A stretch of DNA of 64,000 nt from a virus: the IMG/VR virus record IMGVR_UViG_3300034105_003474, positions 64,001-128,000 of that record. One strand, given 5' to 3'. How positions within the stretch are numbered: position 1 is the first letter of the stretch; every line of letters starts with the position of its first letter. Below are positions 11,600 to 29,246 of the stretch, one piece after another. The position numbers and the translations under genes are program-made. Below the pieces are notes generated by a model that had not been told where the DNA came from, did not search any database, and saw nothing but the letters and a program-made list of their open reading frames with translations.

Positions 11600-11622
11600 A
11601 TGTTCTCATTATCCCACAAAAC

Positions 11623-11666
11623 ACAAAACCCCCGCCCGAACCTTGCGGTCAGAGCGGGGGTTTTGT
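11623..11666 (-). terminator. Terminator downstream of the major capsid gene
   Basis: 13-bp inverted repeat acaaaacccccgc / gcgggggttttgt. Confidence 0.85.
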
Positions 11667-11680
11667 TAATTACTTAGTGA

Positions 11681-12997
11681 TTACGGTGCTGCTGGAGCGT
11701 TATTGAAGGTAACCTTCACGAACGACTCTGGACGCTTAACTGCAAGAGCCAAACGCTGTTCAGCAAGGATCACAATTGCGTTACGCACGAAGAAGTCTGC
11801 ATGCTGTTCGCTGATGCGAATGCTTGCTGACTCACGGTCGTAAATCTGTGCTCCCGTACCGAATGCTCCGATAAGTGCCTGACCTTCAGTCATTGCAGGG
11901 GTGTCCACAACAGGGATCCTCCACAACTTCTGCTCGCCACCCATTGCAACCGAGACTGCTACGACATAAGCGCCGTTGCCATCCTTGGTCAATTCAATGT
12001 CTTCCCAATCGTTCGGGTGCAATACAACGCCCGATGGCTCGTAGTAAGCCAAGAATGAGAGGGTAGCGGCACGACGGAGTGCGTCTGCCTTGGTGTCGCT
12101 CATACCTGCGGTTGCCGAGTAGAAACCCGACGACCAGTTGTAGGTCTGAATGCCAGTGGTGTTCATGATACCTGTAAGGTTCTCGCCCGTTCCTGAACCG
12201 TTAAGGATCTGTGCATCTTCCTGCAAGCGGAGACCGTACATCAACTCGTTGTCAATGATTGAGCGCAGTTGTGGCTCATCAGCAAGAACATTGCGGTGTG
12301 CGGCTTCCCAGTGAGCCAAGGTGCGAACAGGAGCCTGCTCACCAACGAAGGTGAAAGACGACTGTGGCTTGGCTGCAAATGCGGAACCATTACGCTCAGC
12401 AACAGGTGCCGCGTTGTTGGTGAATCCGGTCATGCGGAAGTATTCAATGATTGCAGCAGTCGTGGTGCGACTTGGGAACAAGTCACGAACACGCTTGGTG
12501 CGCATTGGAGGAACAACAAGGGCATCGCGTTGGATGGTGCCAAACTGTCCTGGGGTACCAGTTGGAAGTCCAGAGTACAAGTCTTTCTGACTGTAAACTT
12601 CACTGCTTGACTTGTATGGTGCTGGCATGTTTGCCGAACCACTTGCCAAAAGGGACTTGAACTCTGCTGAAGCAAGGAATGCCTCACCAATGCTCTTGCG
12701 ACCAAATGACTGTACTACTTGCTGTAGTTCCTGCGAAGCGTAAGCCGAAGCCTGTGCTACTGAGTCCTGTGGTTGTGAAGCCCATTGCTCAGCATCGCGC
12801 ATTGCCTCAAGACCCTCAACGAGTCCCTTGATTTCGCGGATGTCTGCCATGTTCTTGTCAAACGCGGTCTTTTGTTCTGCGGATACTACTACGGTGCCGT
12901 CTTCAATTTTGAAGTTGTCGGCGATGGTCTTGTTTTCTGCCATCTTGGTGCGCATTGCACCTTGAAGTTCAGTTAAACGGCTGTTGTCAAATGACAT
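11681..12997 (-). CDS. Major capsid protein, HK97 fold with N-terminal delta (scaffold) domain
   Basis: Coiled-coil N-terminus, EDAQILNGSGTGENLTGI, LWRIPVV, FVRNAIVILAEQR. AGGAG RBS 8 nt before ATG 12997. Confidence 0.95.
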   Translation of the reverse strand: MSFDNSRLTELQGAMRTKMAENKTIADNFKIEDGTVVVSAEQKTAFDKNMADIREIKGLVEGLEAMRDAEQWASQPQDSVAQASAYASQELQQVVQSFGRKSIGEAFLASAEFKSLLASGSANMPAPYKSSSEVYSQKDLYSGLPTGTPGQFGTIQRDALVVPPMRTKRVRDLFPSRTTTAAIIEYFRMTGFTNNAAPVAERNGSAFAAKPQSSFTFVGEQAPVRTLAHWEAAHRNVLADEPQLRSIIDNELMYGLRLQEDAQILNGSGTGENLTGIMNTTGIQTYNWSSGFYSATAGMSDTKADALRRAATLSFLAYYEPSGVVLHPNDWEDIELTKDGNGAYVVAVSVAMGGEQKLWRIPVVDTPAMTEGQALIGAFGTGAQIYDRESASIRISEQHADFFVRNAIVILAEQRLALAVKRPESFVKVTFNNAPAAP

Positions 12998-13096
12998 GTT
13001 GTTCACTCCTAGTGAATTGGATTTGGTTGGTGATTACTTATGTTTTTATTGCAGACTTCGGTAAGCACCTAGTCCAGTTACTATTACTGTAATACG

Positions 13097-13130
13097 AGAA
13101 TAACATCAAAGTAGTATTAAAAATGCAACC
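13097..13130 (-). promoter_or_regulatory. Candidate capsid-gene promoter: GGTTGCATTTT box plus extended -10 TGtTATTCT
   Basis: Repeated motif with the same spacing as at 2253 and 46131. Confidence 0.55.
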
Positions 13131-14405
13131 CTATAAAATCAGACTATTTGAGTAATGTCGTTTGACCACTTTTGGGCAACATCCTTTGGAATATTTGACT
13201 CCGTATTCGCCTTCTTGGAATCCAACCCACTTTTTGCTCGTTTTACGGTTCCTCCATGGGTGATCCAACGGAAGTAGATCGTTGTCATCAAAGTATTTTA
13301 CATCGGCTGGTTTGTCGGAGTTCAGCAACGCCAAAAACTTGTAGACACGCTTCTTTGCAACATCTTTTGAACCATCTTCCAAGCCTCGTAAGAACACTAT
13401 TTTTAGGTCACGAAGGTTAGTTTTTGCTGTAGGTTTTGCTTTGGCGTTGTTGTTTCTTACTCGTACAGCCAAATCGTTGATATCGCTACTAGTCACGGTT
13501 GGTGGCTTCTTCTTAGGTTTTGGAACACCCTTAAAAGAGAGCACCCCCTCCCCGAATAAAGACTTACCCGGATTTGGGTACTGTGCAGCCTGTTGATTAT
13601 GCAGATTCCGTGCATATGTATCGGCATCTTGTATGTTTGAAAACTTACCTAAATGCTGACCGCTTCTTTGGTAGTGCTTAATGGCTTCTCGGTCGCTTAC
13701 TATTACGCCACTCCCATTAGGTCTTTTGATTACCGTAGGGATGACAACAGCCGTATTCCCTTCGGTGATTGTCATGGAACGAACCGTGCTGATAGACCCG
13801 TCGCGATTTTTCACAACAGGGCGATTATTTAAATCTATATTGCCTTTGGTTATTTCACCCTTTGGTCGTTTCTCCTGTTTAGGTGAAACCCGTGTATCAT
13901 CTGCACCACCCGGTGTGGACGCAACATAGCCGTCACCGTCGCCATCAATTGGTTTATTCCCACTACTGTCAACAGAACCACCAATGGGTGTACCTAAAAC
14001 TTTTTTCCCAAATTTGGAACCTTGTCGTCTTGGGTTGTTCCTAGGGCTGTTATCCCCTCGGATACCTGTTACACGGTTGTAGTCAGACACATTCGTGCAA
14101 GGAAGCCAAACCAGTTTTCCATCCCGTGCCGTATAGCGACGAATACCTATACATCCAAGATTGCGTGCACGGATACGGGCAGACTCAGGGTCACTGAAAG
14201 TATCAGGGTCTGTGGAACGGCTAACAAAGTTAACGAAACCCTTCTGCTCTACAGGTTTTTCTAAAGTCTGCTTTTTGTTCATGCCTTTGATGTACTCGGC
14301 AGGATTTTGATTTTTCACTATTGTAAAGTAATAAAAATCAGCCTTCTCGGCAGGGGAGAAGGTCTGTATCAGAGAGGCTAATTCTCTTGATTCTTTTGGT
14401 GTCAT
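13131..14405 (-). CDS. Multi-domain head-module protein (LGCxG..WLPC module, DGDGDG motif, GNIDLNNRP domain, DNDLLP..HP domain)
   Basis: Shares modules with the adjacent 431-aa protein. Confidence 0.65.
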   Translation of the reverse strand: MTPKESRELASLIQTFSPAEKADFYYFTIVKNQNPAEYIKGMNKKQTLEKPVEQKGFVNFVSRSTDPDTFSDPESARIRARNLGCIGIRRYTARDGKLVWLPCTNVSDYNRVTGIRGDNSPRNNPRRQGSKFGKKVLGTPIGGSVDSSGNKPIDGDGDGYVASTPGGADDTRVSPKQEKRPKGEITKGNIDLNNRPVVKNRDGSISTVRSMTITEGNTAVVIPTVIKRPNGSGVIVSDREAIKHYQRSGQHLGKFSNIQDADTYARNLHNQQAAQYPNPGKSLFGEGVLSFKGVPKPKKKPPTVTSSDINDLAVRVRNNNAKAKPTAKTNLRDLKIVFLRGLEDGSKDVAKKRVYKFLALLNSDKPADVKYFDDNDLLPLDHPWRNRKTSKKWVGFQEGEYGVKYSKGCCPKVVKRHYSNSLIL

Positions 14406-15697
14406 TCTGCACTCTCCTCAACAGCAAGCATTGACCTATCAAGAATAAGAATCACATTTGGCGAAACAGGGGAGCCAGAAACATCAGCAACAAATCCGTT
14501 GGAAACTCTCAAATTCAACCTAGAACCTCTTACCCCTTTAGAGACCAAAACTCTCCCGATATCGTCATCCCCATAAAAGGATGTTATTCCCTTTTTCACT
14601 CTCTCGCGATGTCCTGTTACTTCATCTGCGAAGTCTTCGCGTTCCATCAAAAAATCTGGAGGGATAGCAACTTTTATAACTTCACCTTTTCTTAGATTCC
14701 CCTGATCGTCAAACCCACCTTCGGCATAAACCTCGGCACTTTCTCTGTCTAGTGAGAAATGTATACCGTTACCGTGAGCACCCAATCCTGCAAAATAATC
14801 ACCTTTTCTGAAACCATCTGCCAGATCTTTGGCTTCAACAATAACTTCGTCATTTTCTGTATCAACGATGCTTGCAATCCCGCGATACGCAATAGTCCAT
14901 CCCTTTTTTTCTAGACTTGCCATTTCCAAAGATGAAACAACTTTTGGTAGACCTGTAAATCCCTGCATCTCAGCAATCATTTCCAATTGAATATCAGGCT
15001 TAACATCATTTTTTATTTTACTGAGTCTTTTGTTGTACTCTTTTCCGCCGTCTGATTTTTTGAATTCCTGAGCGTCTTTGCCAAAAAGTTTTCCCAATTG
15101 TTTTGTTATGTCTTTAGCCATTTTATTTTTACTATTCGCGATCGTGCTAGGAGCAACAGGAATATTGTCTTCTCCGTCGGGACCAGTAGTGAACCCGTCG
15201 CTATCGCCGTCAAACTCTGCTACACCACCAATAGGGCGACCTAAAGACTTGCCGGAAAACGAGCCAGTTACAAGCCCACCACCCGGCAAGGTTGCGATAC
15301 CAGAAATAGGTTTCTCGTCAAGGTTCTCCCAACCCCGTTTGGGTGCTTTGTGGTTGCAAACCGCATAATACTTTTTCCCTGCAAGAAGGATCGTTCGGAC
15401 ACCACCACAACCACGAGCCTTAGAAATAGCGACAGCATCAGCACGATTCTCGTAATATGCATCAGACTTTGTTTCTAAACGCTTTGTCCTTTGAACCATT
15501 TTGGGCAACGGCTTCTTCTTTTTGGAAGCACGAACTTTCAGGTATTCGTCTTTACCTTTTTTGATTGCTTCATATTCTTCACGCGAGGCGCAAGGCATCC
15601 AGCCTTTACCGTCTTCGTATACGCCTTGGCATCCAAGCATGCGTGCAACACGAAGAGCCTGATCGCGCGTTGTTTTATTCTTCTCGTCTTCAGACAT
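14402..15697 (-). CDS. Head-module protein with two DUF3721-like repeats and a C-terminal ADP-ribosyltransferase-like domain
   Basis: A..LGC.G...WMPC and A..RGCGG...YAVC repeats; C-terminal IAYRG...GNGIHFS...AEVYA pattern. Confidence 0.55.
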   Translation of the reverse strand: MSEDEKNKTTRDQALRVARMLGCQGVYEDGKGWMPCASREEYEAIKKGKDEYLKVRASKKKKPLPKMVQRTKRLETKSDAYYENRADAVAISKARGCGGVRTILLAGKKYYAVCNHKAPKRGWENLDEKPISGIATLPGGGLVTGSFSGKSLGRPIGGVAEFDGDSDGFTTGPDGEDNIPVAPSTIANSKNKMAKDITKQLGKLFGKDAQEFKKSDGGKEYNKRLSKIKNDVKPDIQLEMIAEMQGFTGLPKVVSSLEMASLEKKGWTIAYRGIASIVDTENDEVIVEAKDLADGFRKGDYFAGLGAHGNGIHFSLDRESAEVYAEGGFDDQGNLRKGEVIKVAIPPDFLMEREDFADEVTGHRERVKKGITSFYGDDDIGRVLVSKGVRGSRLNLRVSNGFVADVSGSPVSPNVILILDRSMLAVEESAE

Positions 15698-15960
15698 TAT
15701 TCTTTTTCTTTTTTAGATATTTTTTCAACCTCTGAAGCATATTCCATAGACATCGCGTACTGATCAAATAGTTCATCTATTTTGTCCGCATTCTCTTTAT
15801 TCATCAGATATGAGACCATTGACTCAAGGTCGCCATCTTTTCCGTTTTCGTTTGCATACCCGTAGGCAATGGCAATAATTTTAGAACGTGTTTCAGGGTT
15901 CTTTACTGTCGTTAGCAGTTGATTTTTGATTGAGTTTTTTTGTTCTGTTGTGAGTTTCAT
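15697..15960 (-). CDS. Small protein, candidate immunity partner of the upstream GNAT-like effector
   Basis: 87 aa, stop/start overlaps with both neighbours. Confidence 0.55.
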   Translation of the reverse strand: MKLTTEQKNSIKNQLLTTVKNPETRSKIIAIAYGYANENGKDGDLESMVSYLMNKENADKIDELFDQYAMSMEYASEVEKISKKEKE

Positions 15961-18755
15961 TACGCCAACCTTGGTGGTTCTACTCGTATTCTAGGGCGAG
16001 CAATTTTTGCTTTCTTGGGAAGTTTCTGACCAATTTTTTGTTCAGCAAAAGATAGCGTTCCACCACCAAATCCAAGATTTGCTTTAAACCATTGTTTCAC
16101 ATATTCCATCTTTTCCCTGTCACCAGTAGGATCATCCAAAGCAAAGATTATGTCTTGATGCTGATACTGCTTACCACCTCTTGCTTGTGCAAGGATTGAT
16201 TTGATTCGCGCATATTCTGCGTCATTATTTATCAATCCGCCAGCACCAAAATCCTCATAAAATTTGAGAGGCGACTGAAGCACTTGTAGGTCTCTATCGG
16301 TCAAACCATAGTTTCTTTTGAATCCAACACGAGCCCAAACATACTGACCATCATCGGCTGCGTTCACATTTGCTTTAGTGACACCTATTTGCTTCAGATA
16401 GAGAAACGCATGTTGGTTATAAATTGTTTGAATATCAGCACCCCTATCAATTTTGCTTGTTACAAACATTGAATTTTGGCTTACGATACCCTGCGACACG
16501 CTTACGCTCCGAGACGAAGTAGCGATTTTTGCTCTTATAACTTCACCATTTGCGTTAATCTCGTCAAACTGAACCTGAACTTGAAACCCATTTTGGGGAG
16601 ACACTGTTGCCGTAGCACGGTAAAGTTTCCCGTTCTTACCTTCAATTCTTTGGTGAGAATAAGCCTGTTTCAAGTACTCTGCCTTTTGCGGAGCAGTGAG
16701 TCTTCCCCATTTTACGGGTGTCATGTCTTCATATGGTGCACCACCGTTTGGGTGCCGTTGCTTAAGATACTTAGCAAGTTTTCCTTGACGACGTTCAATC
16801 GCCTCGTTCACCTGATCATTGATCTTCTTCGCTACATCTTCTGGAAGCGGTCTAGGAATATTTGTTGCATCTGTGTTGAAAACAAAACCTTGTTTCCTTC
16901 TTTCTGATGCTTTCCGTATTTCTGGTCCTAATGCTTCTATCAACTGAATATGACCTTCATATTTTCCAATATCGGATTGCAGTTGAGCAATTTTTTTCAT
17001 TGTTTCAACACGGTTGAATTCTTTTACTTCTGGAGTATTGCCAAGAGGTGAACGCATAAGTCTGAATTCTGCGCTGAGTTGTGTTTCTAATTCCGCAAGT
17101 TTGGTTCGCGCACCTGCAACTCCACCTTGCGGTCTTACATATCCAATATATTTTCTTTTCGCTTCGGTAACTAAAGCCGATACATCAGCATTGGGATTTG
17201 CCCTCAGTAAATCTGCAACTCTTGAAAGTTCTTTTTGGAAGTTTCGTACCGCAAGTTGGCGACCTTCATTTTGGTTAAACAGTGCTTGATCGGCTGCTAA
17301 GCCAAGTTGTCCCAAAAGTTTTGGATCTCGCATTTGAAGTAATACTTCTTCAATAAGATCTTCATCTTCTTTTTTGAATTTCGCCGCTTCCATCTTGGGG
17401 GCAACATGCTTTAGTTCATCTGGCACATCCCTAACATCGCGTCTTGTCGGAGCATTGAAAGGTTCGTCAATTGGGTTTGGCACGCTTGACGGTTTCGGGG
17501 CAGGTGTTTCTCTTCTGTCGGAAGGCAGTTTATTGTGTTTCTCTACTTCTTTCCAAGCATTGATAACGTCATTGAGTTCTTCTTTTAATTCACGCACATT
17601 CATTTGTTCGTTTGCACCAGAAACAACATCAAGGGGACTCAAATCACCCCTATTCTGTGCTTGCTGTATGCGATCAAGTTGTGCTTGATGTATCAAAATA
17701 TTTCTTTTTGCAAGGTTTAGAGCGTTTGACCTTGGGTTCTGATCTGTTTGATTTATATCAGGGAAGTTAATTGGATCGTTTATTATTCTTAAACGTGCGT
17801 TCAATACATCTCTGTTGATTCGTTCAACAAAAGTTTCATCATTTAGCACATTATTCAAGTTCATGTGCCTTATTTTTTTGGGGCGAGCAGCCTCTGCCCT
17901 AACCTCTTCGGAACGAGCGGCATTGTCGCTTTCTCCGCGTGGAGCAGGTCGCGGAACTCGTCTTTGTTCTGATTCGGCATCAAGCATCGCACCAATGTCG
18001 CCTTCGGGTTTCTTTCTAGGGCGACGAGGTTTAACCACCTTTGGTTCTACAACTGGTTTTTCAACAATGTTTTGTGCTTGTTGTCTTGGTGCTTTAGGCT
18101 TGTTTGTTGCTTCAACAACTGCACGACGACGGCGACGAGCAGGTGCTTCACCAGTACGAGGTGCACCGGGTTGTTCAATCTCACGATCCATGCGTCGTTG
18201 TTCTGATTCTCTAACATTTGGCGCACGCCTTCTCTGTGGTGCACGAGGAGCAGGTGGAGTAGGGGTTAACTCTCTTGGAGTGGCAGGTGCATCAACGGAT
18301 GGTTGTCGGGTAACAACAGTTCGCCTACGGGCACCACGAGGACTTGGGGTATCGGAAACTTCTAATCTGTCTGCAACACCACGCAAACCTCGCTCTAGGC
18401 GACCTGCGCCACCGCTTTGAGGATTAAGTCTTGCAAGTATTCGTCGTTCACGACGAGCAATACGACGACCACGGCGAGCATCATCAACATTCTCTAAGCG
18501 TTGACCAATATCTGATATTTGATTAGCGATGCGTCGTGCGACACCCCAACCGCAAGACCGACCAAAGCGATCGGTTATCTGTCCGCCATACCGTGTCCCC
18601 GTTGGACAGCGCCAGCCTCCACGACGGTTGGTGCCGGGTATAGAAAGACTTGGATCCCACATGGCGCGAACAGCCTTGACTTCATAAGCAATAGTTGACG
18701 TGTTCCGTTCGCTAAGAAAAGATTTTGCCTTAAAGTCGGCGATATTCTGAAGCAT
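15960..18755 (-). CDS. Polymorphic head-module protein: conserved RCPxG module plus C-terminal GNAT-like acetyltransferase domain
   Basis: WDPSLSIPGTNRRGGWRCPTGTRYGGQITDRFGRSCGWG; C-terminal DRGADIQ...LKQIGV...VNAADDGQYVWARVGF. Confidence 0.65.
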   Translation of the reverse strand: MLQNIADFKAKSFLSERNTSTIAYEVKAVRAMWDPSLSIPGTNRRGGWRCPTGTRYGGQITDRFGRSCGWGVARRIANQISDIGQRLENVDDARRGRRIARRERRILARLNPQSGGAGRLERGLRGVADRLEVSDTPSPRGARRRTVVTRQPSVDAPATPRELTPTPPAPRAPQRRRAPNVRESEQRRMDREIEQPGAPRTGEAPARRRRRAVVEATNKPKAPRQQAQNIVEKPVVEPKVVKPRRPRKKPEGDIGAMLDAESEQRRVPRPAPRGESDNAARSEEVRAEAARPKKIRHMNLNNVLNDETFVERINRDVLNARLRIINDPINFPDINQTDQNPRSNALNLAKRNILIHQAQLDRIQQAQNRGDLSPLDVVSGANEQMNVRELKEELNDVINAWKEVEKHNKLPSDRRETPAPKPSSVPNPIDEPFNAPTRRDVRDVPDELKHVAPKMEAAKFKKEDEDLIEEVLLQMRDPKLLGQLGLAADQALFNQNEGRQLAVRNFQKELSRVADLLRANPNADVSALVTEAKRKYIGYVRPQGGVAGARTKLAELETQLSAEFRLMRSPLGNTPEVKEFNRVETMKKIAQLQSDIGKYEGHIQLIEALGPEIRKASERRKQGFVFNTDATNIPRPLPEDVAKKINDQVNEAIERRQGKLAKYLKQRHPNGGAPYEDMTPVKWGRLTAPQKAEYLKQAYSHQRIEGKNGKLYRATATVSPQNGFQVQVQFDEINANGEVIRAKIATSSRSVSVSQGIVSQNSMFVTSKIDRGADIQTIYNQHAFLYLKQIGVTKANVNAADDGQYVWARVGFKRNYGLTDRDLQVLQSPLKFYEDFGAGGLINNDAEYARIKSILAQARGGKQYQHQDIIFALDDPTGDREKMEYVKQWFKANLGFGGGTLSFAEQKIGQKLPKKAKIARPRIRVEPPRLA

Positions 18756-18758
18756 GGT

Positions 18759-19076
18759 TTAAGCCTTAAAACTTTTTTTATTTGGAAGAGATTTAATTTG
18801 ATTTTTATACATTTCTTCAGTTACTTGCCCATCAGAACTGTATTGTGCGGACATTGAATTAAGACGGTAAAGAATATATTCCATTCCGCTTCCCTCTAAA
18901 GGGATCTCGTTTCGTGCCGACGATTCTGAAAGAATTTCAATAAGTTGATCAACAAGTTCTTTATCGGAAGCGTGTATTTCTACAAGTCCATCAATATTTT
19001 TTCCAGCGCAAGACCCATTTACCTTGTTTGTAAATGGATCCATGAATTGACCTATAAAAAACTCTTTCATGATCAC
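18759..19076 (-). CDS. Small AT-rich gene, candidate immunity protein
   Basis: 105 aa, overlaps the stop codon of the upstream kinase gene. Confidence 0.55.
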   Translation of the reverse strand: MIMKEFFIGQFMDPFTNKVNGSCAGKNIDGLVEIHASDKELVDQLIEILSESSARNEIPLEGSGMEYILYRLNSMSAQYSSDGQVTEEMYKNQIKSLPNKKSFKA

Positions 19077-21940
19077 CTTTGGTTACTTGGAATTATATTG
19101 ACTATCTCATTTTCGGCGTTGCGAAGGTTTGCAAGACTTCGTACCATGCCATCATAAAGTGCTCCTGCTCGGGCTTTATTTGAGTCAGTCTTACTTACTT
19201 TCTGCAATGCGTCTGTTATGAATTGTTCACGACCGACAGCAAGTGTTTTTTCTGTTTGCACAACAACCTGTCTGTACACTTCTTGAATTCGCGCATAAGT
19301 TTCACGCCTTTGCGCGTCTGACATAGCGGGTAGTGCGGTGCGCATTGTGGCAAGAATGTCCTGATCCATTGAGAAACCCCGTTGGTAACGATCAAACAGC
19401 CCTCCGTGTGCCCTTCCAGCCCAACCCAAGTCCATCGGAACGACATGCGCTAATTTCTTGCCGTCTGGTAATTCCACTACACGACCCATACCGTTGCCTC
19501 CGTGGCGGTCGCTAACACCAAGAATATAGTTGGCTAGAACATTGGACAATCTTTCAGGAAGACCTTTATCTGGAAGAGCGTTCAGGGCTCCTTTGTTGAA
19601 ATCGTACCCACCAGCAGCACCGCCGATTACTGCCCCTTCAGGCACGTCGTTGTGTGCCAGAGGGATCATGATGTAAGGGGTTCCTTTTCGGACTGTTCCA
19701 AGAGGCTTTCGTACATCTGCTTCAAGTTTACCGTCTTGAATTGCTCCGTCTTCCAAGATCCCTACAGCAGCCAAGTAGTTCCATCCAATGAGTTCGCCGA
19801 CATTGTCGGCAGGTTTTGCAGCCTTGAAAACCCATCCCTGATTAGTCGGATTTCCATTTTCATCACGCAAAAAGTAAATTTTAGTTACACCTACAGCGCC
19901 ACCGTTGGGTTGTACTTTTTTGAAACGCTTATTTGTGTCTCGTGGGTCTGATGAAGCGTTTGCCTCTATGGCAATGTGCATGAATTTTGCTGGAACTTTT
20001 TGTATGTCTCCACCATTTTTTATATGGTCAATTGCTTTTTGTTCCGTATTAATTGTTCGGTCTTCTTCGGAAACAAACTTTCCGATAGGGGAGTTCCTTC
20101 TGTCTATCTTTAACTTACCATGAGCATTTTTTGATCTTGCAAACTTACGGAATGGTGATTTCTTTTGTCCTTGAGCCGCTGCTCTTGGTGCAGTAGGTGG
20201 TTTAGGTGTCGTTGGTGAATTGTCTTCTGTCGCTGGGAATTCCCCTGAAGGACCGCCAGCAGCAGCATAAATAAATTCTGCGAAGTTGTTGTAGTCACTT
20301 ACCGTATGGCGACCGCCATAGCCCTGTTCGTAAGAGTTCCCATCTGGTTCGCGTAGAGTAAATTTTGTTAATTTTCCATTACCGTCAAACTCTGGAGTAA
20401 GCGTGTAACCATTTCGTGTCCACATAGTTTTATCTGTGTTAAGAACCCAATTTGAATTTAAATTCAACTTTTCCAAATTGTTCAGTGGTTGATTATTAGG
20501 TGCTTGTCCCTGTTGTTGAGCAGGACGTGCTGGTCTCACAGGTCGCGCTGGTGCTGGCTCTGGAACATCATCGGCGGTTGGTTTGCGTGTAGCGCTACGA
20601 GCGGCACCTGCTGTTGTTGCCTTCTTGCGACGACCACGATTATTCCGTGGGCGACGAGCCTGTGGTGTTGGCGGTTCAAAATCTTGTGGTGCACTACGAC
20701 CGTGAGCATCTTTCCAAGCGTCACGAAGATTAGGTTTGTTGATTGCATACCATTCACGCCGTGTCAGCATTCCTGCGTTTCCACCACCTGCGCGAATCTC
20801 ACGAACACGCTTAGCGTATTCATCGTATTTTCTTAATACATACGGGCTGAAACCTTCGGTTGCACTTGCGTCTGATGCTTCGCGTGCTGTGAGTACATCA
20901 ACGTTTTCTGCTTGTGGTGCAACGCGTGGGCGTGGCTGTGGTCGTCTTTGTCCTGCTGGCGCTGGTCGGCGTGCAGGACGAGGTGTTGACGCAGGCGTTG
21001 GCGCTGTTTCAGGAATAACATCGCGTCTCCTGTTTTGTGGTCTACGAGCCGATGGTGCACCTGCTTCAGGTAGTACATCTTCGCTTCTTTCGCGACCACC
21101 ATTTCCGTTAACAACTCTGTCTAAAACACTTCCGGGTCGCAGGTCATCTGCTATGCGGTTGCCAAGTTCAGCAAAACCAGGACCGCCTCTTCGCTGTCGC
21201 GGTTTAGCACCACCTTCAAGACGATCAGCAATACCGCGCAATCCACCTTCAACGCGACCAGTCTCAGGAACTCCACCAAGCCGTCTAATCATTCGTGCGT
21301 TACGACGGTCAAGGCGACGCTTTCGTTTGTCGTCGTCTCGTTGTTCTAAGCGTTCACCGATGTCGGCGATTTGGTTGGCGATGCGACGCGCTACGCCCCA
21401 ACCGCACGAACGACCAAAACGATCGGTGATCTGTCCGCCATATCGTGTCCCTACAGGGCATCGGAAACCACCACGACGATTCGTGCCGGGAATAGAAAGA
21501 CTCGGATCCCAAATTGCTCGCACACCTTTGATTTCAAAGTTGAAAGATGATTGGGTTTGGTCAGAGATAAATGATGAAGCCTTGAAACTCAGAACATTTT
21601 GGAATTCTTCGTTTGAAAACTCAGAAAGTAAAACCTCAGATATTGAAAGAACAGGAAGGTTTTTGGTTTCTACAATTTCCGGTTTAAGGAATGCAAGGTT
21701 TGCAACCTTTTTCTCTATCGCTGATCCTGATGGGCTTGGACCTTCAATAATTTTTGATGAGTCCATTGTTTGAACTAGTTCAGGTTTTGTTATAGGTGTT
21801 TTGCCATATTCTTGACGGAGAAATGTGGCAACTTCTTTAGCGGCTTCGGTCATTGGCTTGAAGGTGGATCCTTCAGGGGTCGTTGAGACGACCATAAATG
21901 GTGTGTTGTCGCGATTTTTGATAATGAAAACTAGGTTCAT
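19073..21940 (-). CDS. Polymorphic head-module protein: RCPxG module plus C-terminal HipA/PI3K-like kinase
   Basis: GGAVG loop, WVFK, GELIG, DRHGGN, PMD. Confidence 0.75.
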   Translation of the reverse strand: MNLVFIIKNRDNTPFMVVSTTPEGSTFKPMTEAAKEVATFLRQEYGKTPITKPELVQTMDSSKIIEGPSPSGSAIEKKVANLAFLKPEIVETKNLPVLSISEVLLSEFSNEEFQNVLSFKASSFISDQTQSSFNFEIKGVRAIWDPSLSIPGTNRRGGFRCPVGTRYGGQITDRFGRSCGWGVARRIANQIADIGERLEQRDDDKRKRRLDRRNARMIRRLGGVPETGRVEGGLRGIADRLEGGAKPRQRRGGPGFAELGNRIADDLRPGSVLDRVVNGNGGRERSEDVLPEAGAPSARRPQNRRRDVIPETAPTPASTPRPARRPAPAGQRRPQPRPRVAPQAENVDVLTAREASDASATEGFSPYVLRKYDEYAKRVREIRAGGGNAGMLTRREWYAINKPNLRDAWKDAHGRSAPQDFEPPTPQARRPRNNRGRRKKATTAGAARSATRKPTADDVPEPAPARPVRPARPAQQQGQAPNNQPLNNLEKLNLNSNWVLNTDKTMWTRNGYTLTPEFDGNGKLTKFTLREPDGNSYEQGYGGRHTVSDYNNFAEFIYAAAGGPSGEFPATEDNSPTTPKPPTAPRAAAQGQKKSPFRKFARSKNAHGKLKIDRRNSPIGKFVSEEDRTINTEQKAIDHIKNGGDIQKVPAKFMHIAIEANASSDPRDTNKRFKKVQPNGGAVGVTKIYFLRDENGNPTNQGWVFKAAKPADNVGELIGWNYLAAVGILEDGAIQDGKLEADVRKPLGTVRKGTPYIMIPLAHNDVPEGAVIGGAAGGYDFNKGALNALPDKGLPERLSNVLANYILGVSDRHGGNGMGRVVELPDGKKLAHVVPMDLGWAGRAHGGLFDRYQRGFSMDQDILATMRTALPAMSDAQRRETYARIQEVYRQVVVQTEKTLAVGREQFITDALQKVSKTDSNKARAGALYDGMVRSLANLRNAENEIVNIIPSNQR

Positions 21941-22062
21941 TGTTTACTTTCCACATTCGTGAAGATATTCAGCAAGCCATGCAAATCTTGAGGTTGCATT
22001 ATCGCTACCGTAAAATGGTATCACTAAGTGGGTGATATTAATTTTAGGTTGATGTCAATATA

Positions 22063-22359
22063 TTATTTGTTATCTAATTTTTTGTGACCCAAGGCAACTA
22101 GGAAATTATTAATTTTATCCTTATTTGAACCCTTGTACTCAAGTATTTCTGCATGACGGTATGAGTACCCATGCAACATACTCTCAAGGTCAGCCCTATC
22201 CGACGAGCCTTTCTTGACCGCCAAAAAGTGTTCATTGTCCTTTTTGTCTGAATCTTTATCCTTTGAGTAATACTTAATAATCCCTTTATCGTCCTCAACT
22301 ATGACGAGTGGATCCACCTGAACTAGTGGGTCTTTGGAGGTGATGATCGCTGCTCTCAT
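22063..22359 (-). CDS. Small protein, candidate kinase immunity protein (homolog of 26749-27066)
   Basis: MRAAIIT...PLVIVEDDKGI...NEHFL...GYSY. Confidence 0.6.
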   Translation of the reverse strand: MRAAIITSKDPLVQVDPLVIVEDDKGIIKYYSKDKDSDKKDNEHFLAVKKGSSDRADLESMLHGYSYRHAEILEYKGSNKDKINNFLVALGHKKLDNK

Positions 22360-22364
22360 GGTTC

Positions 22365-25037
22365 CTATGATCCTATAATCAAATCAGCAAGTCTGCCGGG
22401 GTCAACATCTGTTATATATTTCATTTTTCTTTGCGGTTTTACGCCAACCCTCAAAAGAGCCTGATCCCCACCCCTAGGGTTAGCGGTTCCATCCCCACCG
22501 GCTTTCAGTACATCTTCAACAACATTCATATACGGGTTTTTACGCTCTGCCTCACGGATGGACTTCTGAACCTCTTCAACGGCTAAGAGTATCTCGCGCC
22601 GACTTATTTGCCTATCTTTGAATTGCTGTCTCAATGTTGCAAGCATCTCGTTTCTTCTACCACCAACATCGTTGCCTAAAAAGCCTCGTAATCCTTCGTC
22701 GTTGCCATCATAATTTTCGTGAGCCCGCCCACCCCAGTTGACATCAAACCCAAGAGAAGGATCAATTGGGACGAACCGCTTCTTACCACTGGAGTCAGTC
22801 GCTACAAAGAAGTTCCCTCCATGGCGGTCTCTGTTGACCATGATGTAGTCCAAAAGTGTCGCTCTAACACGATCGGCAGGTTTTATTTGCGACACGGCTA
22901 CTTGATTTCTTCCGTCTGTCAGCACCCCATCAACGTAGTTCCCTGCGTGTTCATAAACAATAGCCCTACCAGCGCTGTTAGGGGCACCCGGTCCACCTTT
23001 TTGTTTCCCATCCATTCGCACACCACCGACAGGCATGCCAAGTCTACCAGCAAGATTATTGCCGATCACTTCATGAATGTCTTCGTTTTCTGCATGGGCA
23101 CCACTTTGGTATTTTAAGAAAAACTTGTTCCCAGTGATGGCGTCGGTAAACATATGCATATTGTTGGGAATGTTGCCGTTAACACCACCACCAGCATCTG
23201 ATTTAGAGAATCTTGTTGTTGCACCGTGTAGTGCTTCACCCAATAACTCATCAGGGACATCAGCCAAATCTCCACCTTTTTCTAGGTGGTCAATTGCTTG
23301 CTCCTTGGTATCCATACCTTTGTTCCCCAATGGAACGCTTTTCACATCAGGCAAACCGTCTTCACCTAATTTGTTCAGTTTTTCTGGTGCATGACCATCT
23401 TTTGCTTTTGGTGGTGAGACATCCCATCCACCTTCTGGTTCTGGTATGTCTGCTGGTCGTTGTGGTGGTTGCGCTGGTGACTGTACGCGTGGAGCGTTCT
23501 GGTCGTTGACATTATTATTTGGTACAACAACTTGATTTCGTTGCCTAAATTCAATAGCAGCATCAATTTCAGCAAGTCTTAATTCGGCAGCGGAAACTCC
23601 GTCTTTTATTTTTTCTTTTTGTCCCCACATTCGCAATAAATTATCTCTGGCTTCGTCTCTTTCTCGTTCGCTACCATTCTTTTTACTCTGCCAGTCTTCA
23701 AAGGCTCTATCAAATCCTGCTTGAGCCTCTTTGAGAAGTTCTTGATCTCTAATTTTCTTTCCCAAAACTTCTTCTTTGGACATGTTGCGCAAATTATTGT
23801 AAGCGTTCGGCTTGTATCTTTCAATTTCCCCTTCTACTGCTTTGACTAAAGCCTCGTCTCTTTGCTGGTCAAACTCCCTGCGAGGGTTTATGTCTCTTGC
23901 TGGCAGTGGCGGTGGACCTGCTCGTCGTGCAGGTGCTTCAGGTTCAGGCTGTGGCGCTCCTGCTTGTTGCCCAAATATTTGTTGGTTAACAAAATTGCCA
24001 CGAGCATTACGCTTATTGTTGTCATCGTAATACCGACCAAACCTTCTCTCTAGTTCGGCTTTTTCTTCGCCTTCAGGGAAGTCTGGTTTACGCCAATACG
24101 CATCTTCGGGTAATCCGCGAAGATCGCCAAATCGGTTAACAACATTACGGATAGAACGATCGTCCGGTATGCTCCCTCCCAACTCGTCTGCTGTTGGGTT
24201 CCATGCGGGTGGTGGTGGAATTGGTGATGATTGTTCCGCTGGTCGTTCTGGTGGTTTTGGTGCGGGTTTTCTGCGTGGCACCTTTGTCGGTACAGGTTTT
24301 GAACCGTCAACAAAATCTGCTTCAGGTTTTCTTCTAACAGTTCTTTTTGCGCCTTGTTGTGTAGCGTTTCGTCGGCGTCGTCGTGGAGCATTTGGTGCGG
24401 GTGGTTCACCTGTGCGTGGTGCGCCGGGTTGAACTATTTCTCTGTCCATTCTTCGTGCTTCTGATTCACGGAGATTTCCTCTTCTCCGAGGTGCCCGTGC
24501 TGGTTCTCTTGCTGGTTGTTCAGCATCTCCGCCAACAGGGATTCTTGGACGAGCAGGAGGTTCTATGCGTGCAGGATTTTGAACAGCGATTCGTGGACGA
24601 GCAGGAGCGCGTGGAGTAGTTACTGGTTTTCCAGTTGCTCCACCATCTAACGCGTCTGCCAAACCGCGAGCGCCACGCTCAAGTAAGCCGGGTTTATCTT
24701 GACGAGCCAAAAACCGTTGCACACGCGCATTCCGTTTTGCCAAACGAGCATTTCGTTTACGGTCGTCAACATTCTCTAGCCGTTCACCAATATCTGCTAT
24801 CTGGTTTGCGATTCTCCGAGCAACACCCCACCCGCAAGACCGTCCATAACGGTCTGTAATTTGACCGCCGTATCTTGTGCCAACAGGGCAACGCCAACCG
24901 CCACGACGATTCGTGCCCGGAATAGACAAACTTGGATCCCAAAGCGCACGAGCGCCTTTAACATCATAATTAAAAGTACTTGCAGTTTGCTCAGCGAGAA
25001 ACGCGAGCGCCTTGTAATTCACTTCATTCTTGAGCAT
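22365..25037 (-). CDS. Polymorphic head-module protein: RCPxG module plus C-terminal HipA/PI3K-like kinase
   Basis: GGGVNG loop, FFLK, HEVIG, LDYIMVNRDRHGGN, PID. Confidence 0.8.
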   Translation of the reverse strand: MLKNEVNYKALAFLAEQTASTFNYDVKGARALWDPSLSIPGTNRRGGWRCPVGTRYGGQITDRYGRSCGWGVARRIANQIADIGERLENVDDRKRNARLAKRNARVQRFLARQDKPGLLERGARGLADALDGGATGKPVTTPRAPARPRIAVQNPARIEPPARPRIPVGGDAEQPAREPARAPRRRGNLRESEARRMDREIVQPGAPRTGEPPAPNAPRRRRRNATQQGAKRTVRRKPEADFVDGSKPVPTKVPRRKPAPKPPERPAEQSSPIPPPPAWNPTADELGGSIPDDRSIRNVVNRFGDLRGLPEDAYWRKPDFPEGEEKAELERRFGRYYDDNNKRNARGNFVNQQIFGQQAGAPQPEPEAPARRAGPPPLPARDINPRREFDQQRDEALVKAVEGEIERYKPNAYNNLRNMSKEEVLGKKIRDQELLKEAQAGFDRAFEDWQSKKNGSERERDEARDNLLRMWGQKEKIKDGVSAAELRLAEIDAAIEFRQRNQVVVPNNNVNDQNAPRVQSPAQPPQRPADIPEPEGGWDVSPPKAKDGHAPEKLNKLGEDGLPDVKSVPLGNKGMDTKEQAIDHLEKGGDLADVPDELLGEALHGATTRFSKSDAGGGVNGNIPNNMHMFTDAITGNKFFLKYQSGAHAENEDIHEVIGNNLAGRLGMPVGGVRMDGKQKGGPGAPNSAGRAIVYEHAGNYVDGVLTDGRNQVAVSQIKPADRVRATLLDYIMVNRDRHGGNFFVATDSSGKKRFVPIDPSLGFDVNWGGRAHENYDGNDEGLRGFLGNDVGGRRNEMLATLRQQFKDRQISRREILLAVEEVQKSIREAERKNPYMNVVEDVLKAGGDGTANPRGGDQALLRVGVKPQRKMKYITDVDPGRLADLIIGS

Positions 25038-26756
25038 TTATTTTTTCTTCTTTGCGCTGACCAAGTCTGGCTTAATGAAGGTTTCGTACTGCCAACGAGG
25101 TGCTGTTCTTTCAATACCGTCAAGACCTGTGTAAGTAACAAGTTCCAACGGCTTAGGAACATTTCCTGTATCGGTGATAAACTTAAATGCACCTTCTGAG
25201 TTTTTGGCAAAATTCTCAATATTTGAAATAATGTTATCTTTTGTGCTTGATTCTGCAAGAGAGTTAATCATTCGTGGGAACTTGCGCTTCTCGCCAATCG
25301 TAAATGGTCGTGAACGCTCAATACTTACCACTACACCGTTTGGTGCAACAAACGCAATTTTACTCATTGAAGGACCACCCAATAGTGCCAGATCATCTGC
25401 TCCTATATCAGCAGGTAGTTGAATGGCGCGAACCATTGCGCCGTCAACCATGTCAGGGTTCTCGCTAAAAGAACGAAGAACAGATGAAGCAACAACAGGA
25501 CGCAAAACCACTCCGTCTCTGCGGATCATTCTGCCTTCACCTTTTGGTGCGCCTTTAAGCAAGTTGATTGAATCCGATACTGAACGGTTGAATTTATCTT
25601 TTTGGAATGCACCTGTTCGTGGTATCTGTGCCATGCGCTGAATTTGAATTGTTCGCGCTGCTGTCGGTGAACCTTCTAATACTTCGGACAGATTCTCTGC
25701 TCGCGCTTGTGGAAGTTTTGGTGATGCTGTCGGGCGCATTGCTCGCCTTATGAGTTCTAGCGGACCTGGTATTTCAAACAACTGCGCACCACAAGTGGAG
25801 AAACGATTGTCCGTGAAACGACCACCAAATTCAAAACCGGCAGGGCATCGTGCTTGACGCCTGCGATTAGGCTTGAGCCTGCTGAGCGCCCCACCGCCAC
25901 CGCCGGGAATAAGTGCGCCATAAAGTCTTGAGCGAATAGGTGCGCTGAATGGGGATATGTTGCCCGGTGTTACTACAGAACCAACTGCCTGAGCCGCTCT
26001 ACCAAGTCCACTTGAAGAACCAACAAGACCTGCTTTGATTTCCATGTCTTCAGCGTCATCTTTTTCAACACGGTATCCACCGCCACGCTTCTTGTATTCG
26101 CGAACAAGCCAAGCGTTAGCGTAAGCAGAAGGGTATACATTGAATTTCTTTTTTGCTTCGGCTTTTACTCGCGCATAAAGTTCTTTGTCCGTTGGGATAT
26201 TCGCACCTTTTAATGTGGTCTCATCAGATTTGAATGTGGACACATTGATCGGCTTGTTTTCTTCTCGGTTACCCGCTGTTTCTGCACGACGCTTTCTGCG
26301 AACAGCGGAATCAATTTCTTCTGCGGACATTCTCATCGCTGTAGATTTCTTTACACACTTAGGGTATTTACCTGAATCTGCGTCTCCGCGACCACATGAC
26401 TCAAATCCGCCACCTTTTTTCGGGCGTGAAATATCAACCCATTCTTCTTCAAACCATTTCCCTAATCCACCGCGCTTGGATTCATCACCGATAAAGGTTT
26501 CTGCACCTAGTTTTGATGTACGAGACTTTAGGTAAAGTTTTGCTTTAAAGTTTAGAAGAGCCCTACTTCCGTCAAGCGGAGTTTTACGAACATCTGATCC
26601 TTTAGTGAAAAGGAATTTTGTTTTTGCATTATCAGGGTTAAAATAAATTTCCTCACCAGAGACAATATTCGTCCGTTTCATAGCAGTTTTCATACGCATA
26701 GACATACGGAGTTTTCTCGCAAAATACTCAAAGTCTTGGTTGAGATAACTACTCAT
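25038..26756 (-). CDS. Multi-domain head-module protein (GLGKWFEEEWVD domain, DUF5872-like YPSAYA domain, divergent RCPAG module)
   Basis: RVKAEAKKKFNVYPSAYANAWLVREYKKRGG; RCPAGFEFGGRFTDNRFSTCG. Confidence 0.65.
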   Translation of the reverse strand: MSSYLNQDFEYFARKLRMSMRMKTAMKRTNIVSGEEIYFNPDNAKTKFLFTKGSDVRKTPLDGSRALLNFKAKLYLKSRTSKLGAETFIGDESKRGGLGKWFEEEWVDISRPKKGGGFESCGRGDADSGKYPKCVKKSTAMRMSAEEIDSAVRRKRRAETAGNREENKPINVSTFKSDETTLKGANIPTDKELYARVKAEAKKKFNVYPSAYANAWLVREYKKRGGGYRVEKDDAEDMEIKAGLVGSSSGLGRAAQAVGSVVTPGNISPFSAPIRSRLYGALIPGGGGGALSRLKPNRRRQARCPAGFEFGGRFTDNRFSTCGAQLFEIPGPLELIRRAMRPTASPKLPQARAENLSEVLEGSPTAARTIQIQRMAQIPRTGAFQKDKFNRSVSDSINLLKGAPKGEGRMIRRDGVVLRPVVASSVLRSFSENPDMVDGAMVRAIQLPADIGADDLALLGGPSMSKIAFVAPNGVVVSIERSRPFTIGEKRKFPRMINSLAESSTKDNIISNIENFAKNSEGAFKFITDTGNVPKPLELVTYTGLDGIERTAPRWQYETFIKPDLVSAKKKK

Positions 26757-27066
26757 TTTTTGCCGATTCTTTCGGTTCTTCAGGTTCCGCTATTTCTGCG
26801 GGCAAGGTTGTCTTCCACTTTTTAGCCAACTGCCTTAAAAGTGTAATATTTTTTTCATCCAGCACATTAGTACTAACACTATGATACGACATTCCCGAGG
26901 TTGCTTTTTCAATAGTGTCCCTTTGGGACAGAAACAATTCGTTTGTCAAACTTGATGCGAACTTCGGGTCAGGGGCTACCACACCAAAAATGCCGTAATC
27001 CCCCTCAAGAAGAACATATGGGATACCTGAAACATCGGCACTCGGGGTAACTAGGGCGTATCTCAT
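26749..27066 (-). CDS. Small protein, candidate kinase immunity protein (homolog of 22063-22359)
   Basis: MRYALVT...PYVLLEGDYGI...NELFL...GMSY; ATGA overlap with the kinase stop codon. Confidence 0.6.
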   Translation of the reverse strand: MRYALVTPSADVSGIPYVLLEGDYGIFGVVAPDPKFASSLTNELFLSQRDTIEKATSGMSYHSVSTNVLDEKNITLLRQLAKKWKTTLPAEIAEPEEPKESAKNE

Positions 27067-28916
27067 ACAACACTCGCGACTATATCTTCCAACGCTGAGT
27101 CAGCCTTGAGTTTTGGTGGTTTTACAACAAGGTCTGCCAATTGTTTTGGGGTCATTGCTTGCATCTCTCTTAAGCGTGACGACGCCTTTCCGATGTCTGC
27201 CTGCATCTTTTCCATTTCTTTCAACTTTTCGGGAGACATCGCCCATTCTCCTATCAAATTACGATCTTTCAGCATCTCGTCAAGTTGACTCAAGAGACGA
27301 TTTTCCAATGAATCTGCGTCAATTTTCTTTATATCTTGGAGAACTTTTTCAGCATCCTCAACCAGTTTTGCATGCTTCTCAACTGTCCCACCGTGGCGAC
27401 TATTCAGTTCTTGACCAAGATAACCATATTGAAGACCGCCAGCAAACTTTTCTGCTGTTTCGCTGAAATCAAAAACGTTGAGAATAAAACTATGGTCAAT
27501 GGGGACTGCGTCCACACCATCAGAGTTTTCAGCAAAAAGGATGTTTCCGCTATGCCTGTCACCATTAGCCATAGCAATATCCATGATTTGCATATGGAGT
27601 AGTTTGCGACTGTCCACCTTTGCCAATGTTTCAGGGGTGGCAGAGAGTATTTGTCCCTCATATGAGTTGTGAACCAAATCGGTTACTACTCCCATGGCTG
27701 CCTGTGTCGGGGATGCTTGAACAACTCGCAAAGATGAAGATGGATACCCAAAGTCTTCTGTCATGGAAACAGCAAGAACTTCGCTCGCTGGCTCATACCA
27801 TCGGGATGCTCCTCCCTTGGTCAGAGGGGCATTGCTTAACGGGGATTTTTTATCCCAAAGTTGTGTGCGTGAAGCGTATTTAACGCCCAACATTTGACCT
27901 GTAGTTCTATCACGCAAGCGGTTCATTCCAACCACTCCCCCACCAGTGCCAATAAGTTCAAACCTCTTCAGTTCCGCAATGTTCCCATCCTCGTCGTAAA
28001 CATCAATATTTTCTAGGATTGCGTCAAGAACCAGAGTGTCGCTGATTTCGTTCAGTTTCCCGCCATTAGCGATATGTTGTGAAGCCTTTTCACCAGTATC
28101 AATGTTTTTATCCACGCTAGGTAAATCACGGGCAATGTTCCTACCGTTGGCATCAGCAACACCAATTTGTGGGTCAAAGTCTTTAGCCTTGGCAATAGCG
28201 CTGTTGCCTTTCTTGAACCCGCTAGGGGATTTGACCACGGGTGGATCAGCCTTTGGATCGTCTTTTTTATCTTTGCGACGCTTTAATGTCGCTAAGAGGA
28301 AATTCTTTGCATCAACGGTGGCGTCTCGTTTAATCTTCCCCGCTACTGCTTCCAACTGTTCTTTTTTCTTGTCAGATATTTTCCCGCGCCTATGAAGCGA
28401 GTCAGTAGCAAAGTCCAATAGTTGCGCACCGCCAGACTTCAATAAAACCATACCGAAAAGCGTAGATTGTGTCATTGAATCTGAACCATCTGCGTACATG
28501 TAATCCATTGTTTGCAGGGCAATCATCGCCGCTGCTTTTGAACCATTTTTTACTTTTTCAGATTTGAAAATTACCCGAGCGCCATCAATCAATTTTCCAG
28601 CCATGGAAGCCGCCCCGCGTGCTGCTGATTCAGCAGAAGGGGTGAGGCAGTTGGACATCTGCATGTCGGTGAACTGATTTGCGTTAGGTGTACCGGGTGG
28701 GCATCGCAACTTACCCAAAGAATCAACTATCACCCCCGCAGCACGCGCCGCTCTATGACCAACAGAGGTTAACTCTGGTCGGTCTTTTACAGTAGGTCCA
28801 AGGAAACCTTTGAACAGCAAAACATTCTCTTGAACAGCAGCAACAGATTTGCGGTATTCTGCAACTCTCTCGTTTGCGTCAAAAGCGCGAGACGATTTAA
28901 TCATCGCCTCAACCAA
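27063..28916 (-). CDS. Polymorphic head-module protein: divergent RCPPG module plus C-terminal HipA/PI3K-like kinase
   Basis: RCPPGTPNANQFTD..SNC; GGGVVG, GVK, SEVLA, DIAMANGDRHSGN, PIDH. Confidence 0.78.
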   Translation of the reverse strand: MVEAMIKSSRAFDANERVAEYRKSVAAVQENVLLFKGFLGPTVKDRPELTSVGHRAARAAGVIVDSLGKLRCPPGTPNANQFTDMQMSNCLTPSAESAARGAASMAGKLIDGARVIFKSEKVKNGSKAAAMIALQTMDYMYADGSDSMTQSTLFGMVLLKSGGAQLLDFATDSLHRRGKISDKKKEQLEAVAGKIKRDATVDAKNFLLATLKRRKDKKDDPKADPPVVKSPSGFKKGNSAIAKAKDFDPQIGVADANGRNIARDLPSVDKNIDTGEKASQHIANGGKLNEISDTLVLDAILENIDVYDEDGNIAELKRFELIGTGGGVVGMNRLRDRTTGQMLGVKYASRTQLWDKKSPLSNAPLTKGGASRWYEPASEVLAVSMTEDFGYPSSSLRVVQASPTQAAMGVVTDLVHNSYEGQILSATPETLAKVDSRKLLHMQIMDIAMANGDRHSGNILFAENSDGVDAVPIDHSFILNVFDFSETAEKFAGGLQYGYLGQELNSRHGGTVEKHAKLVEDAEKVLQDIKKIDADSLENRLLSQLDEMLKDRNLIGEWAMSPEKLKEMEKMQADIGKASSRLREMQAMTPKQLADLVVKPPKLKADSALEDIVASVV

Positions 28917-29246
28917 CTATTTGTCGCTAGATTCTGACGCTTTGTTAAAGAAAGAAAGTGGAACAACATCATCATCCTCTGCATCTTTTTTCTTAGAAGG
29001 CTTTTTCGTTTCCACTTTGGTTTCTTGTGCATCCTCAACAGGTTCATCAACGCTGATCTCTACTGATGCAGGTGTTTCAACTTCCAACACTGCTTCTTCA
29101 ACGACAACTACTTCCTCTTTGACTTCAACCTCAACAACAGAAATCTGAACTTCAGGCGTCTCAACTACGGGCACTTGTTCTTGTTTTGTGTCAAAAGCAA
29201 GACCAGAAGTGTTCACTGAGTCAAAAGGTTGGTTTTCTTTTTTCAT
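28917..29246 (-). CDS. Acidic low-complexity protein
   Basis: Glu/Val-rich 109-aa ORF tightly packed in the operon. Confidence 0.65.
   Translation of the reverse strand: MKKENQPFDSVNTSGLAFDTKQEQVPVVETPEVQISVVEVEVKEEVVVVEEAVLEVETPASVEISVDEPVEDAQETKVETKKPSKKKDAEDDDVVPLSFFNKASESSDK

Follow-up and report, generated by a model that had tools for sequence, protein, structure and literature searches.

The RCP module and its divergent relatives

We examined a 64,000-nucleotide stretch of DNA (the window) that corresponds to bases 64001-128000 of the IMG/VR record IMGVR_UViG_3300034105_003474, a viral genome of 144,873 bp rated complete, and focused on a protein module of about 100 amino acids (aa), the RCP module, that recurs in three large proteins encoded among the head genes. 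Positions refer to the window, and features lie on the minus strand unless stated otherwise. Copy A occupies positions 24738-25037 (aa 1-100 of an 890-aa protein), copy B positions 21311-21607 (aa 112-210 of a 955-aa protein) and copy C positions 18456-18755 (aa 1-100 of a 931-aa protein); all three were identified by alignments and by hidden Markov model searches, with copy A matching at E 1e-61. The copies are 72-74% identical over 100 aa, and nearly all alignment columns from aa 30 to 88 are invariant. Two module cysteines, C50 and C68, are invariant, with the spacing C-x17-C. The three-copy carrier module described in an earlier note on this DNA is thus real.

The core of the module, some 60 residues, is near-identical between the copies at the protein level, and the DNA identity of the core is only 75-78%. 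Among the window copies, the proportion of nonsynonymous differences (pN) in the core was 0.07-0.08, compared to a saturated proportion of synonymous differences (pS) of 0.63-0.75 (Nei-Gojobori method). A low pN with saturated pS indicates purifying selection on old paralogues, as had been proposed from the combination of the same protein with differing codons. The open reading frame (ORF) of the 955-aa protein also encodes a conserved 111-aa N-terminal extension ahead of copy B, where a pN of 0.12-0.14 and a pS of about 0.6 again indicate purifying selection.

Two divergent relatives of the module had also been proposed, and profile comparisons by hhalign show that their cores are homologous to it. 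The first lies in the middle of a 572-aa protein (25788-25850, R303-G323), where it retains the C-x17-C spacing and is marked out by conservation between orthologues; the 572-family core matched the module with 95% probability (E 3e-8). The second is in a module-like N-terminal region of a 617-aa protein (28587-28811; RCP core at 28647-28706, R71-C90), and the 617-family core matched with 81% probability (E 1e-5) over 42 columns. Each core is conserved within its own orthologue family: the loop RCPxG-x5-(Q/R)(F/I)TD-x5-C, with its fixed C-x17-C spacing, is kept in all but one distinct 572-like orthologue and, among the 617-aa orthologues with an N-terminus inside the contig, in the N-terminal region. 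The YK... and R..W.D elements that lie upstream can be made out by eye as well in distant 617-type proteins, so that the 617-aa protein probably starts with a diverged version of the whole module.

The front half of the 572-aa protein, at aa 96-229 (phrog_23735, DUF5872), has relatives among hypothetical proteins of Pelagibacter, Roseobacter and Synechococcus phages. No relatives of its RCP core or C-terminal half were found in those phage proteins, and a wider search with the C-terminal half returned close relatives only.

An AlphaFold2 (AF2) model of the module, built from a 44-sequence alignment, was of moderate quality, with a predicted local distance difference test score (pLDDT) of 71.8 and a predicted template modelling score (pTM) of 0.38. 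The model opens with a helix at aa 2-19, surrounds the RCP loop with strands at aa 32-38, 45-49 and 60-61, and has a long helix over aa 69-103. The module is predicted to be a small folded domain: an N-terminal helix, a short beta-sheet with the RCPxG...(F/I)TD...C loop, and a long basic helix. Neither Pfam nor PHROGs gave a match to the module, and Pfam gave none in 40 family representatives either. Using the model as query, Foldseek found no match in the PDB and only the module's own family in BFVD, and VIA-align over 48,161 chains returned single helices only (best Z 3.5). There was no usable match in the ESM Atlas. The sole match in a PDB profile search, to the zinc-ribbon ribosomal protein eL37, was not significant (E 0.089).

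Beyond the module, an Arg/Pro-rich linker (17-18% Arg, 11-15% Pro) holds a second motif, RESE.RRMDREI.QPGAP, which the earlier note had reported as common to the 931- and 890-aa proteins. We found it at both sites (18147-18212, at aa 182 of the 931-aa protein; and 24405-24470, at aa 190 of the 890-aa protein), and it is present in 151 of the 256 family proteins, usually 47-110 aa past the module. Two plus-strand ORFs, at 20736-21773 (345 aa) and 17815-18420 (201 aa), run antisense to the regions coding for module and linker; these are most likely composition artefacts and not genes.

Gene order, cargo and charge in the head operon

The head genes form a single unbroken minus-strand row. It begins with a portal protein fused to a MuF domain (32978-35182; PF04860, E 1e-49; PF04233, Phage_Mu_F C-terminal, aa 641-728, E 7e-8), followed by a 700-aa S78 prohead protease with a very acidic C-terminal half (30779-32881; assigned by Pfam, PHROGs and charge count), a very acidic 492-aa PepSY protein (29246-30724) and a 109-aa protein (28917-29246). 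The 617-aa kinase-like protein (27063-28916) comes next, with a 105-aa protein (26749-27066) behind it, and then the 572-aa protein (25038-26756). The three module proteins of 890 aa (22365-25037), 955 aa (19073-21940) and 931 aa (15960-18755) are each followed by a short gene, encoding 98 aa (22063-22359), 105 aa (18759-19076) and 87 aa (15697-15960), respectively. Genes for a 431-aa protein (14402-15697) and a 424-aa protein (13131-14405) precede the HK97-type major capsid gene (11681-13006; Pfam Phage_capsid, E 8e-48), which closes the block.

The module proteins carry enzyme-like regions at their C-termini, which we refer to as cargo. In the 890-aa protein this region (22365-23300) is PI3/4-kinase/HipA-like, with matches to PI3_PI4_kinase (E 0.001-0.004) and HipA_2 (E 0.04), both below the curated cut-off, and to phrog_3162. 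The corresponding region of the 955-aa protein (19073-20101) gave a weak PI3_PI4_kinase match (E 0.06) and is homologous to the kinase region of the 890-aa protein. Both weak matches cover the same catalytic-loop region as in the 617-aa protein, where the PI3_PI4_kinase match of 29.3 bits is above the Pfam cut-off. The C-terminus of the 931-aa protein (15963-16940) was assigned from its structural model: the last 326 aa gave an AF2 model with a pLDDT of 83.6 and a pTM of 0.76, and the top Foldseek and VIA matches were nearly all GNAT acyltransferases (Z 5.6-7.0), including GCN5, NatD, Hat1 and the TacT/AtaT toxins. We therefore regard the predicted fold as GNAT-like with moderate confidence. 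A search for stand-alone GNAT-like cargo gave only 7 matches, at 44-97% identity and several of them on short contigs, and these are probably fragments or relatives of the same module proteins.

The small genes (87-105 aa) that directly follow each of the four large genes (617, 890, 955 and 931 aa) belong to four families that are kept in related phages. At E 0.01, no similarity was found between the four families or between them and the 111-aa extension of the 955-aa protein, and there was none to Pfam.

Charge is unevenly distributed along the operon. The 572-, 890-, 955-, 931- and 424-aa proteins have net charges of +23 to +48, and in the three module proteins the positive charge is concentrated in the module and linker. 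The protease has a net charge of −41 (mostly in its C-terminal half), the PepSY protein −59 and the 109-aa protein −16. This pattern would fit basic cargo that is held on an acidic core and later on DNA.

Several other features of the operon were observed. Inspection of the translations by eye showed that the PepSY protein and the C-terminal half of the protease are cysteine-rich, with several CxxC pairs. In distant relatives, a separate gene of 207-223 aa just upstream of the 572-like gene matches part of the 700-aa protease. The basic 431- and 424-aa proteins, directly upstream of the capsid gene, are without the RCP core; by eye, both open with another short two-cysteine motif, LGC.G ... 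W.PC, and the 431-aa protein matches Pfam DUF3721 at aa 10-38 (E 4e-8). These starts may represent a further type of front tag within this operon.

Distribution, divergence and exchange

Outside the window, the record contains two whiB genes above the Pfam cut-off (G000:C1:26501-26692 and 62430-62630), which identify the phage as an actinophage. Tail sheath, baseplate and large terminase genes are all present within the window. The capsid protein is 47-48% identical to its counterparts in Brevibacterium phage Cantare and Gordonia phages; among the latter we examined ChisanaKitsune, which also has a tail sheath. Taken together, the whiB genes, the tail sheath and the actinophage relatives of the capsid show that this uncultured lake phage is a myophage of Actinobacteria. 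Its closest named relative by proteins is a Rimov-reservoir 'UFOVP' phage (PMC6802176).

ChisanaKitsune (L064, MZ820089.1, record 10744-22410), the nearest cultured capsid relative examined, has extra genes between the portal and the protease/capsid, namely an RNA ligase, a VIP2-like ADP-ribosyltransferase and a 970-aa protein; the RCP module was not found there. A profile of the 572-family RCP core (A6) likewise gave no match in this phage.

The module family belongs to a single uncultured phage lineage. A search of 1.84 billion representative proteins with a profile built from 44 diverse modules gave only 280 clusters at E ≤ 0.001. The module was not found in 50,697 phage records by megablast and tblastn, and a scan of 185,579 prokaryote genomes gave no relative. 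In 59 related viral contigs there are one to three module genes per locus (735-2129 aa), and wherever the flank suffices they occupy the same position in the head block, the order being portal-MuF, protease, PepSY, 617-like, 572-like, module proteins, 431/424-like and HK97 capsid.

None of the 256 family proteins (87-4528 aa) has more than one module. The module is N-proximal in all 256, starting at residue 2-6, about 110-240 or about 390, and is never C-terminal. Lineages with one protein of about 2100 aa have one module and those with three proteins of about 900 aa have three, and one large single-module protein carries two kinase-like regions behind its module. An address function would lead one to expect exactly this, a single module on each polypeptide however much cargo it carries. 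The starts near residue 390 come from proteins in which a 572-like protein is naturally fused to a module protein, as observed in four protein clusters; these metagenomic fusions (P0235, P0237, P0239 and P0254; 2187-3086 aa) have two RCP cores per chain, one of which comes from the 572-like region. BLAST clustering of the C-terminal regions was uninformative, with shared linkers joining almost all of them by single linkage.

The rate of change differs markedly along the operon. Comparing mid-distance relatives with the window, identity is 80-90% in the module core, 72-79% in the capsid, 54-65% in the protease and 59% in the portal, and the C-terminal parts of the module proteins are often unalignable. 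The core is thus as slow as or slower than the capsid and its cargo is unalignable or swapped, so that the module evolves like a core assembly component and unlike the enzymes attached to it.

In a quick tree, for which the careful maximum-likelihood search is incomplete and whose deep forks carry no resolution, the modules of close relatives cluster according to their position, as classes A, B and C. The triplication is therefore older than the split of the close relatives. Recent gene conversion between the copies was considered and rejected, as pS is 0.54-0.93 in every within-locus paralogue pair at all loci. Exact nucleotide matches between the window's copies extend over 13-17 nucleotides at most. 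With no more than 17 identical bases and saturated synonymous sites, the copies are poor substrates for homologous exchange within one genome, and their synonymous divergence may in its own right guard against deletions between direct repeats.

Between related phages, orthologous module genes prove to be mosaics in which the C-terminal cargo has been exchanged. When the 955-aa protein is compared with its orthologue at locus L008, pS is 0.01-0.19 through the extension and module, but the C-termini are only 24% identical with a pS of 0.77. Compared to the orthologue at locus L006, the position is reversed: pS is 0.56-0.75 in the module, and the kinase region is 99% identical with a pS of 0.09. 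Cargo and front ends therefore reassort between related phages. The earlier note had suggested that the module DNA could serve as homology for this tip-swapping. The swapping itself is borne out by the mosaics, but the points of transition map to the linker or to the central part of the proteins (roughly aa 225-665) and cannot be shown to fall in the module, and the copies share too little identical sequence to favour exchange between them.

Function of the module and comparison with known systems

We consider it moderately probable that the module is a folded capsid-loading or docking domain, which would bring effector proteins into the head for packaging and later ejection. During prohead assembly, the module would dock each polypeptide to a conserved internal component, candidates for which are the capsid N-terminal region, the acidic protease extension, the acidic PepSY protein, the portal-MuF fusion and the 572-aa protein. 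The basic Arg/Pro-rich linker would then lie on acidic core proteins and afterwards on DNA, with its conserved motif as a possible maturation-cleavage site or second contact site. The variable C-terminal enzymes (kinase-like and GNAT-like) would reach the host together with the DNA.

This docking role is favoured by the fixed position of the module genes between protease and capsid in the 59 loci (flank permitting), by the single N-proximal module per polypeptide at any size or cargo number, and by a core that is under strong constraint and changes no faster than the capsid in front of swapped cargo. It is also favoured by the complementary charges of the basic module, 572- and 424-aa proteins and the acidic protease, PepSY and 109-aa proteins, by the fusions of 572-like and module proteins in four clusters, by the enzyme-like cargo and by the precedent of the targeting sequence of phage T4. 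A capsid-interior docking tag, as the earlier note had put it, remains the best reading, with gene context as its whole basis. That note had named two outcomes that would count against it: a match to a known domain of unrelated function, and an occurrence mainly outside head modules. Neither was observed: Pfam, PHROGs and the PDB gave no match, and the module genes are inside the head block in the 59 loci wherever the flank suffices.

Other observations weigh against a docking domain. We infer the presence of the module proteins in virions from the genes of an uncultured phage, and no cultured phage was found to carry the module (50,697 phage records, with ChisanaKitsune examined). The module is about ten times longer than the T4 targeting sequence and far more conserved, and the extreme N-terminus is not required, since copy B lies behind 111 aa and the module of some relatives behind about 390 aa. 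The AF2 model of the module is only moderate, and no fold match from Foldseek or VIA-align lends functional support. Finally, the basic character of the module and its zinc-ribbon-like knuckles would suit nucleic-acid binding equally well.

A bolder form of the docking proposal, which we put forward only tentatively, is that the RCP module is an undescribed, self-sufficient capsid-loading and ejection tag, such that any polypeptide carrying it would be packed into the head of these actinobacterial myophages and injected.

Alternatively, the module could be a nucleic-acid-binding domain, consisting of a degenerate zinc ribbon and a basic helix, which, jointly with the Arg-rich linker, would anchor the proteins to the phage genome. 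They would then be DNA-condensing internal proteins, or proteins drawn out with the DNA, and docking to a protein partner would not be the module's role. Both module and linker are indeed strongly basic, 5 of 40 family proteins match the histone-H1-like HC2 family, and the only PDB similarity is that to eL37, in which the RCPxG and xCGWG of the module align opposite RCPxCG and CxxCGWG. However, a zinc-ribbon or rubredoxin-like domain has four Cys/His metal ligands in two CxxC-type knuckles; here only C50 and C68 are invariant, glycine replaces the second ligand of each knuckle, and the eL37 match is not significant. One lead is that the core may be a zinc ribbon in which each knuckle has retained a single cysteine. 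In tailed-phage assembly proteins enter the prohead ahead of the DNA, and DNA binding alone therefore cannot account for incorporation. Nucleic-acid binding is also compatible with docking, and we think it unlikely as the primary function.

It is less likely again that the module is an oligomerisation or structural element, through which the five RCP proteins would co-assemble into an inner body or core within the head by means of the beta-loop and long helix, comparable to the inner bodies of phiKZ or the core of T7, with the enzymes as secondary passengers. Five proteins do carry the core, the model contains the long helix at aa 69-103, 572-like/module fusions exist and conservation is at the level of the capsid protein. 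However, the module copy number varies from one to three between related phages, which would be unusual for a structure of fixed stoichiometry, and neither Foldseek nor VIA-align revealed a coiled coil or core-protein homology. Least probable of all is a role inside the infected cell, either following delivery or with no packaging at all, as a common regulatory, localisation or target-binding domain of late-expressed host-modifying enzymes whose genes lie in the head operon by chance: the module's very strong conservation, its occurrence with different enzymes and the small downstream partner genes, which could inhibit cytoplasmic enzymes, would be accommodated, but the strict protease-to-capsid confinement (in loci with enough flank), the rule of one module per polypeptide and the capsid-like conservation of the core amid enzyme exchange would all be left unexplained.

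Phage proteins that are injected with the DNA decide the first minutes of infection, including host takeover and counter-defence. To our knowledge, the way in which such cargo is directed to the capsid is poorly understood beyond T4, phiKZ-like phages, P1, N4 and the MuF toxins. If the module is a self-sufficient tag of the kind put forward tentatively above, this lineage would have a system for delivering polymorphic effectors, with enzymes that can be exchanged and small proteins as their partners, using a domain unrelated to MuF or to the T4 and phiKZ leaders. A folded, highly conserved and portable address domain would provide a sequence marker for injected effectors in metagenomes and a handle for engineered protein delivery by phages of Actinobacteria. 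It would also represent a natural system that shuffles kinases and acetyltransferases behind a constant tag, in some of the most abundant freshwater phage-host pairs.

The module is unrelated in sequence to the T4 targeting sequence, the phiKZ/SPN3US propeptides and the MuF domain, so that any likeness would be one of functional analogy only. T4 capsid targeting sequences (CTSs) are peptides of 10-20 aa that sit on the otherwise diverse internal proteins IPI-III and Alt and are removed by the gp21 protease (PMC3012670, PMC5694885). The RCP module resembles them as a conserved N-terminal element on diverse proteins that would be head-internal and ejected, N-proximal in 256 of 256 proteins with differing cargo, and encoded by genes linked to head morphogenesis; the T4 cargo of host-modifying enzymes and anti-defence proteins is a further likeness. 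Unlike the short T4 leader, the module has about 100 aa with predicted secondary structure, two invariant cysteines and much higher conservation, and it is not always terminal.

In the paralogous inner-head and ejection proteins of phiKZ-like giant phages, such as SPN3US gp53/gp54 and phiKZ gp93-95, N-terminal regions of more than 100 aa are thought to target the proteins into the prohead (PMC5694885). The long N-terminal regions and the varying number of paralogues between related phages are similar here. The family of these proteins, PF12699, was not matched (no Pfam match at E 0.01, and none in 40 representatives), and the present system differs in its Actinobacteria hosts, its 145-kb genome, its HK97/S78-type rather than T4-like protease and the exchange of enzymatic cargo between phages.

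Polyvalent proteins of phages and conjugative elements (Iyer et al. 2017, PMC5512222) combine 2-15 effector domains in one polypeptide whose gene has a virion or transfer setting. They are very large, have many domains, have their genes among those for the virion and are predicted to enter the host with the DNA. Distant relatives of the module proteins may be comparable: they reach 2000-4528 aa, and one has two tandem kinase-like regions, although most of their length is without a recognisable domain. In contrast, the cargo of the window phage is distributed over several tagged polypeptides, with one recognisable cargo on each. The domains of the Iyer catalogue were not detected with Pfam, and the kinase here is PI3/4K/HipA-like as opposed to a truncated Ser/Thr kinase.

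The MuF polymorphic toxins of temperate phages (Jamet et al. 2017, PMC5576092), like polymorphic toxin systems generally (PMC3482391), offer a further comparison. They differ in that the module phages look lytic and are absent from the 185,579 prokaryote genomes, and in that PF04233 is absent from the module proteins and sits instead on the portal (aa 641-728). The layout is nevertheless alike, with a constant N-terminal domain (whose trafficking role is putative here), a linker and a variable C-terminal enzyme, encoded in the head module with small genes behind them. As in the MuF toxins, the C-terminal tips are reassorted by recombination, here as kinase-like and GNAT-like ends exchanged between mosaic orthologues.

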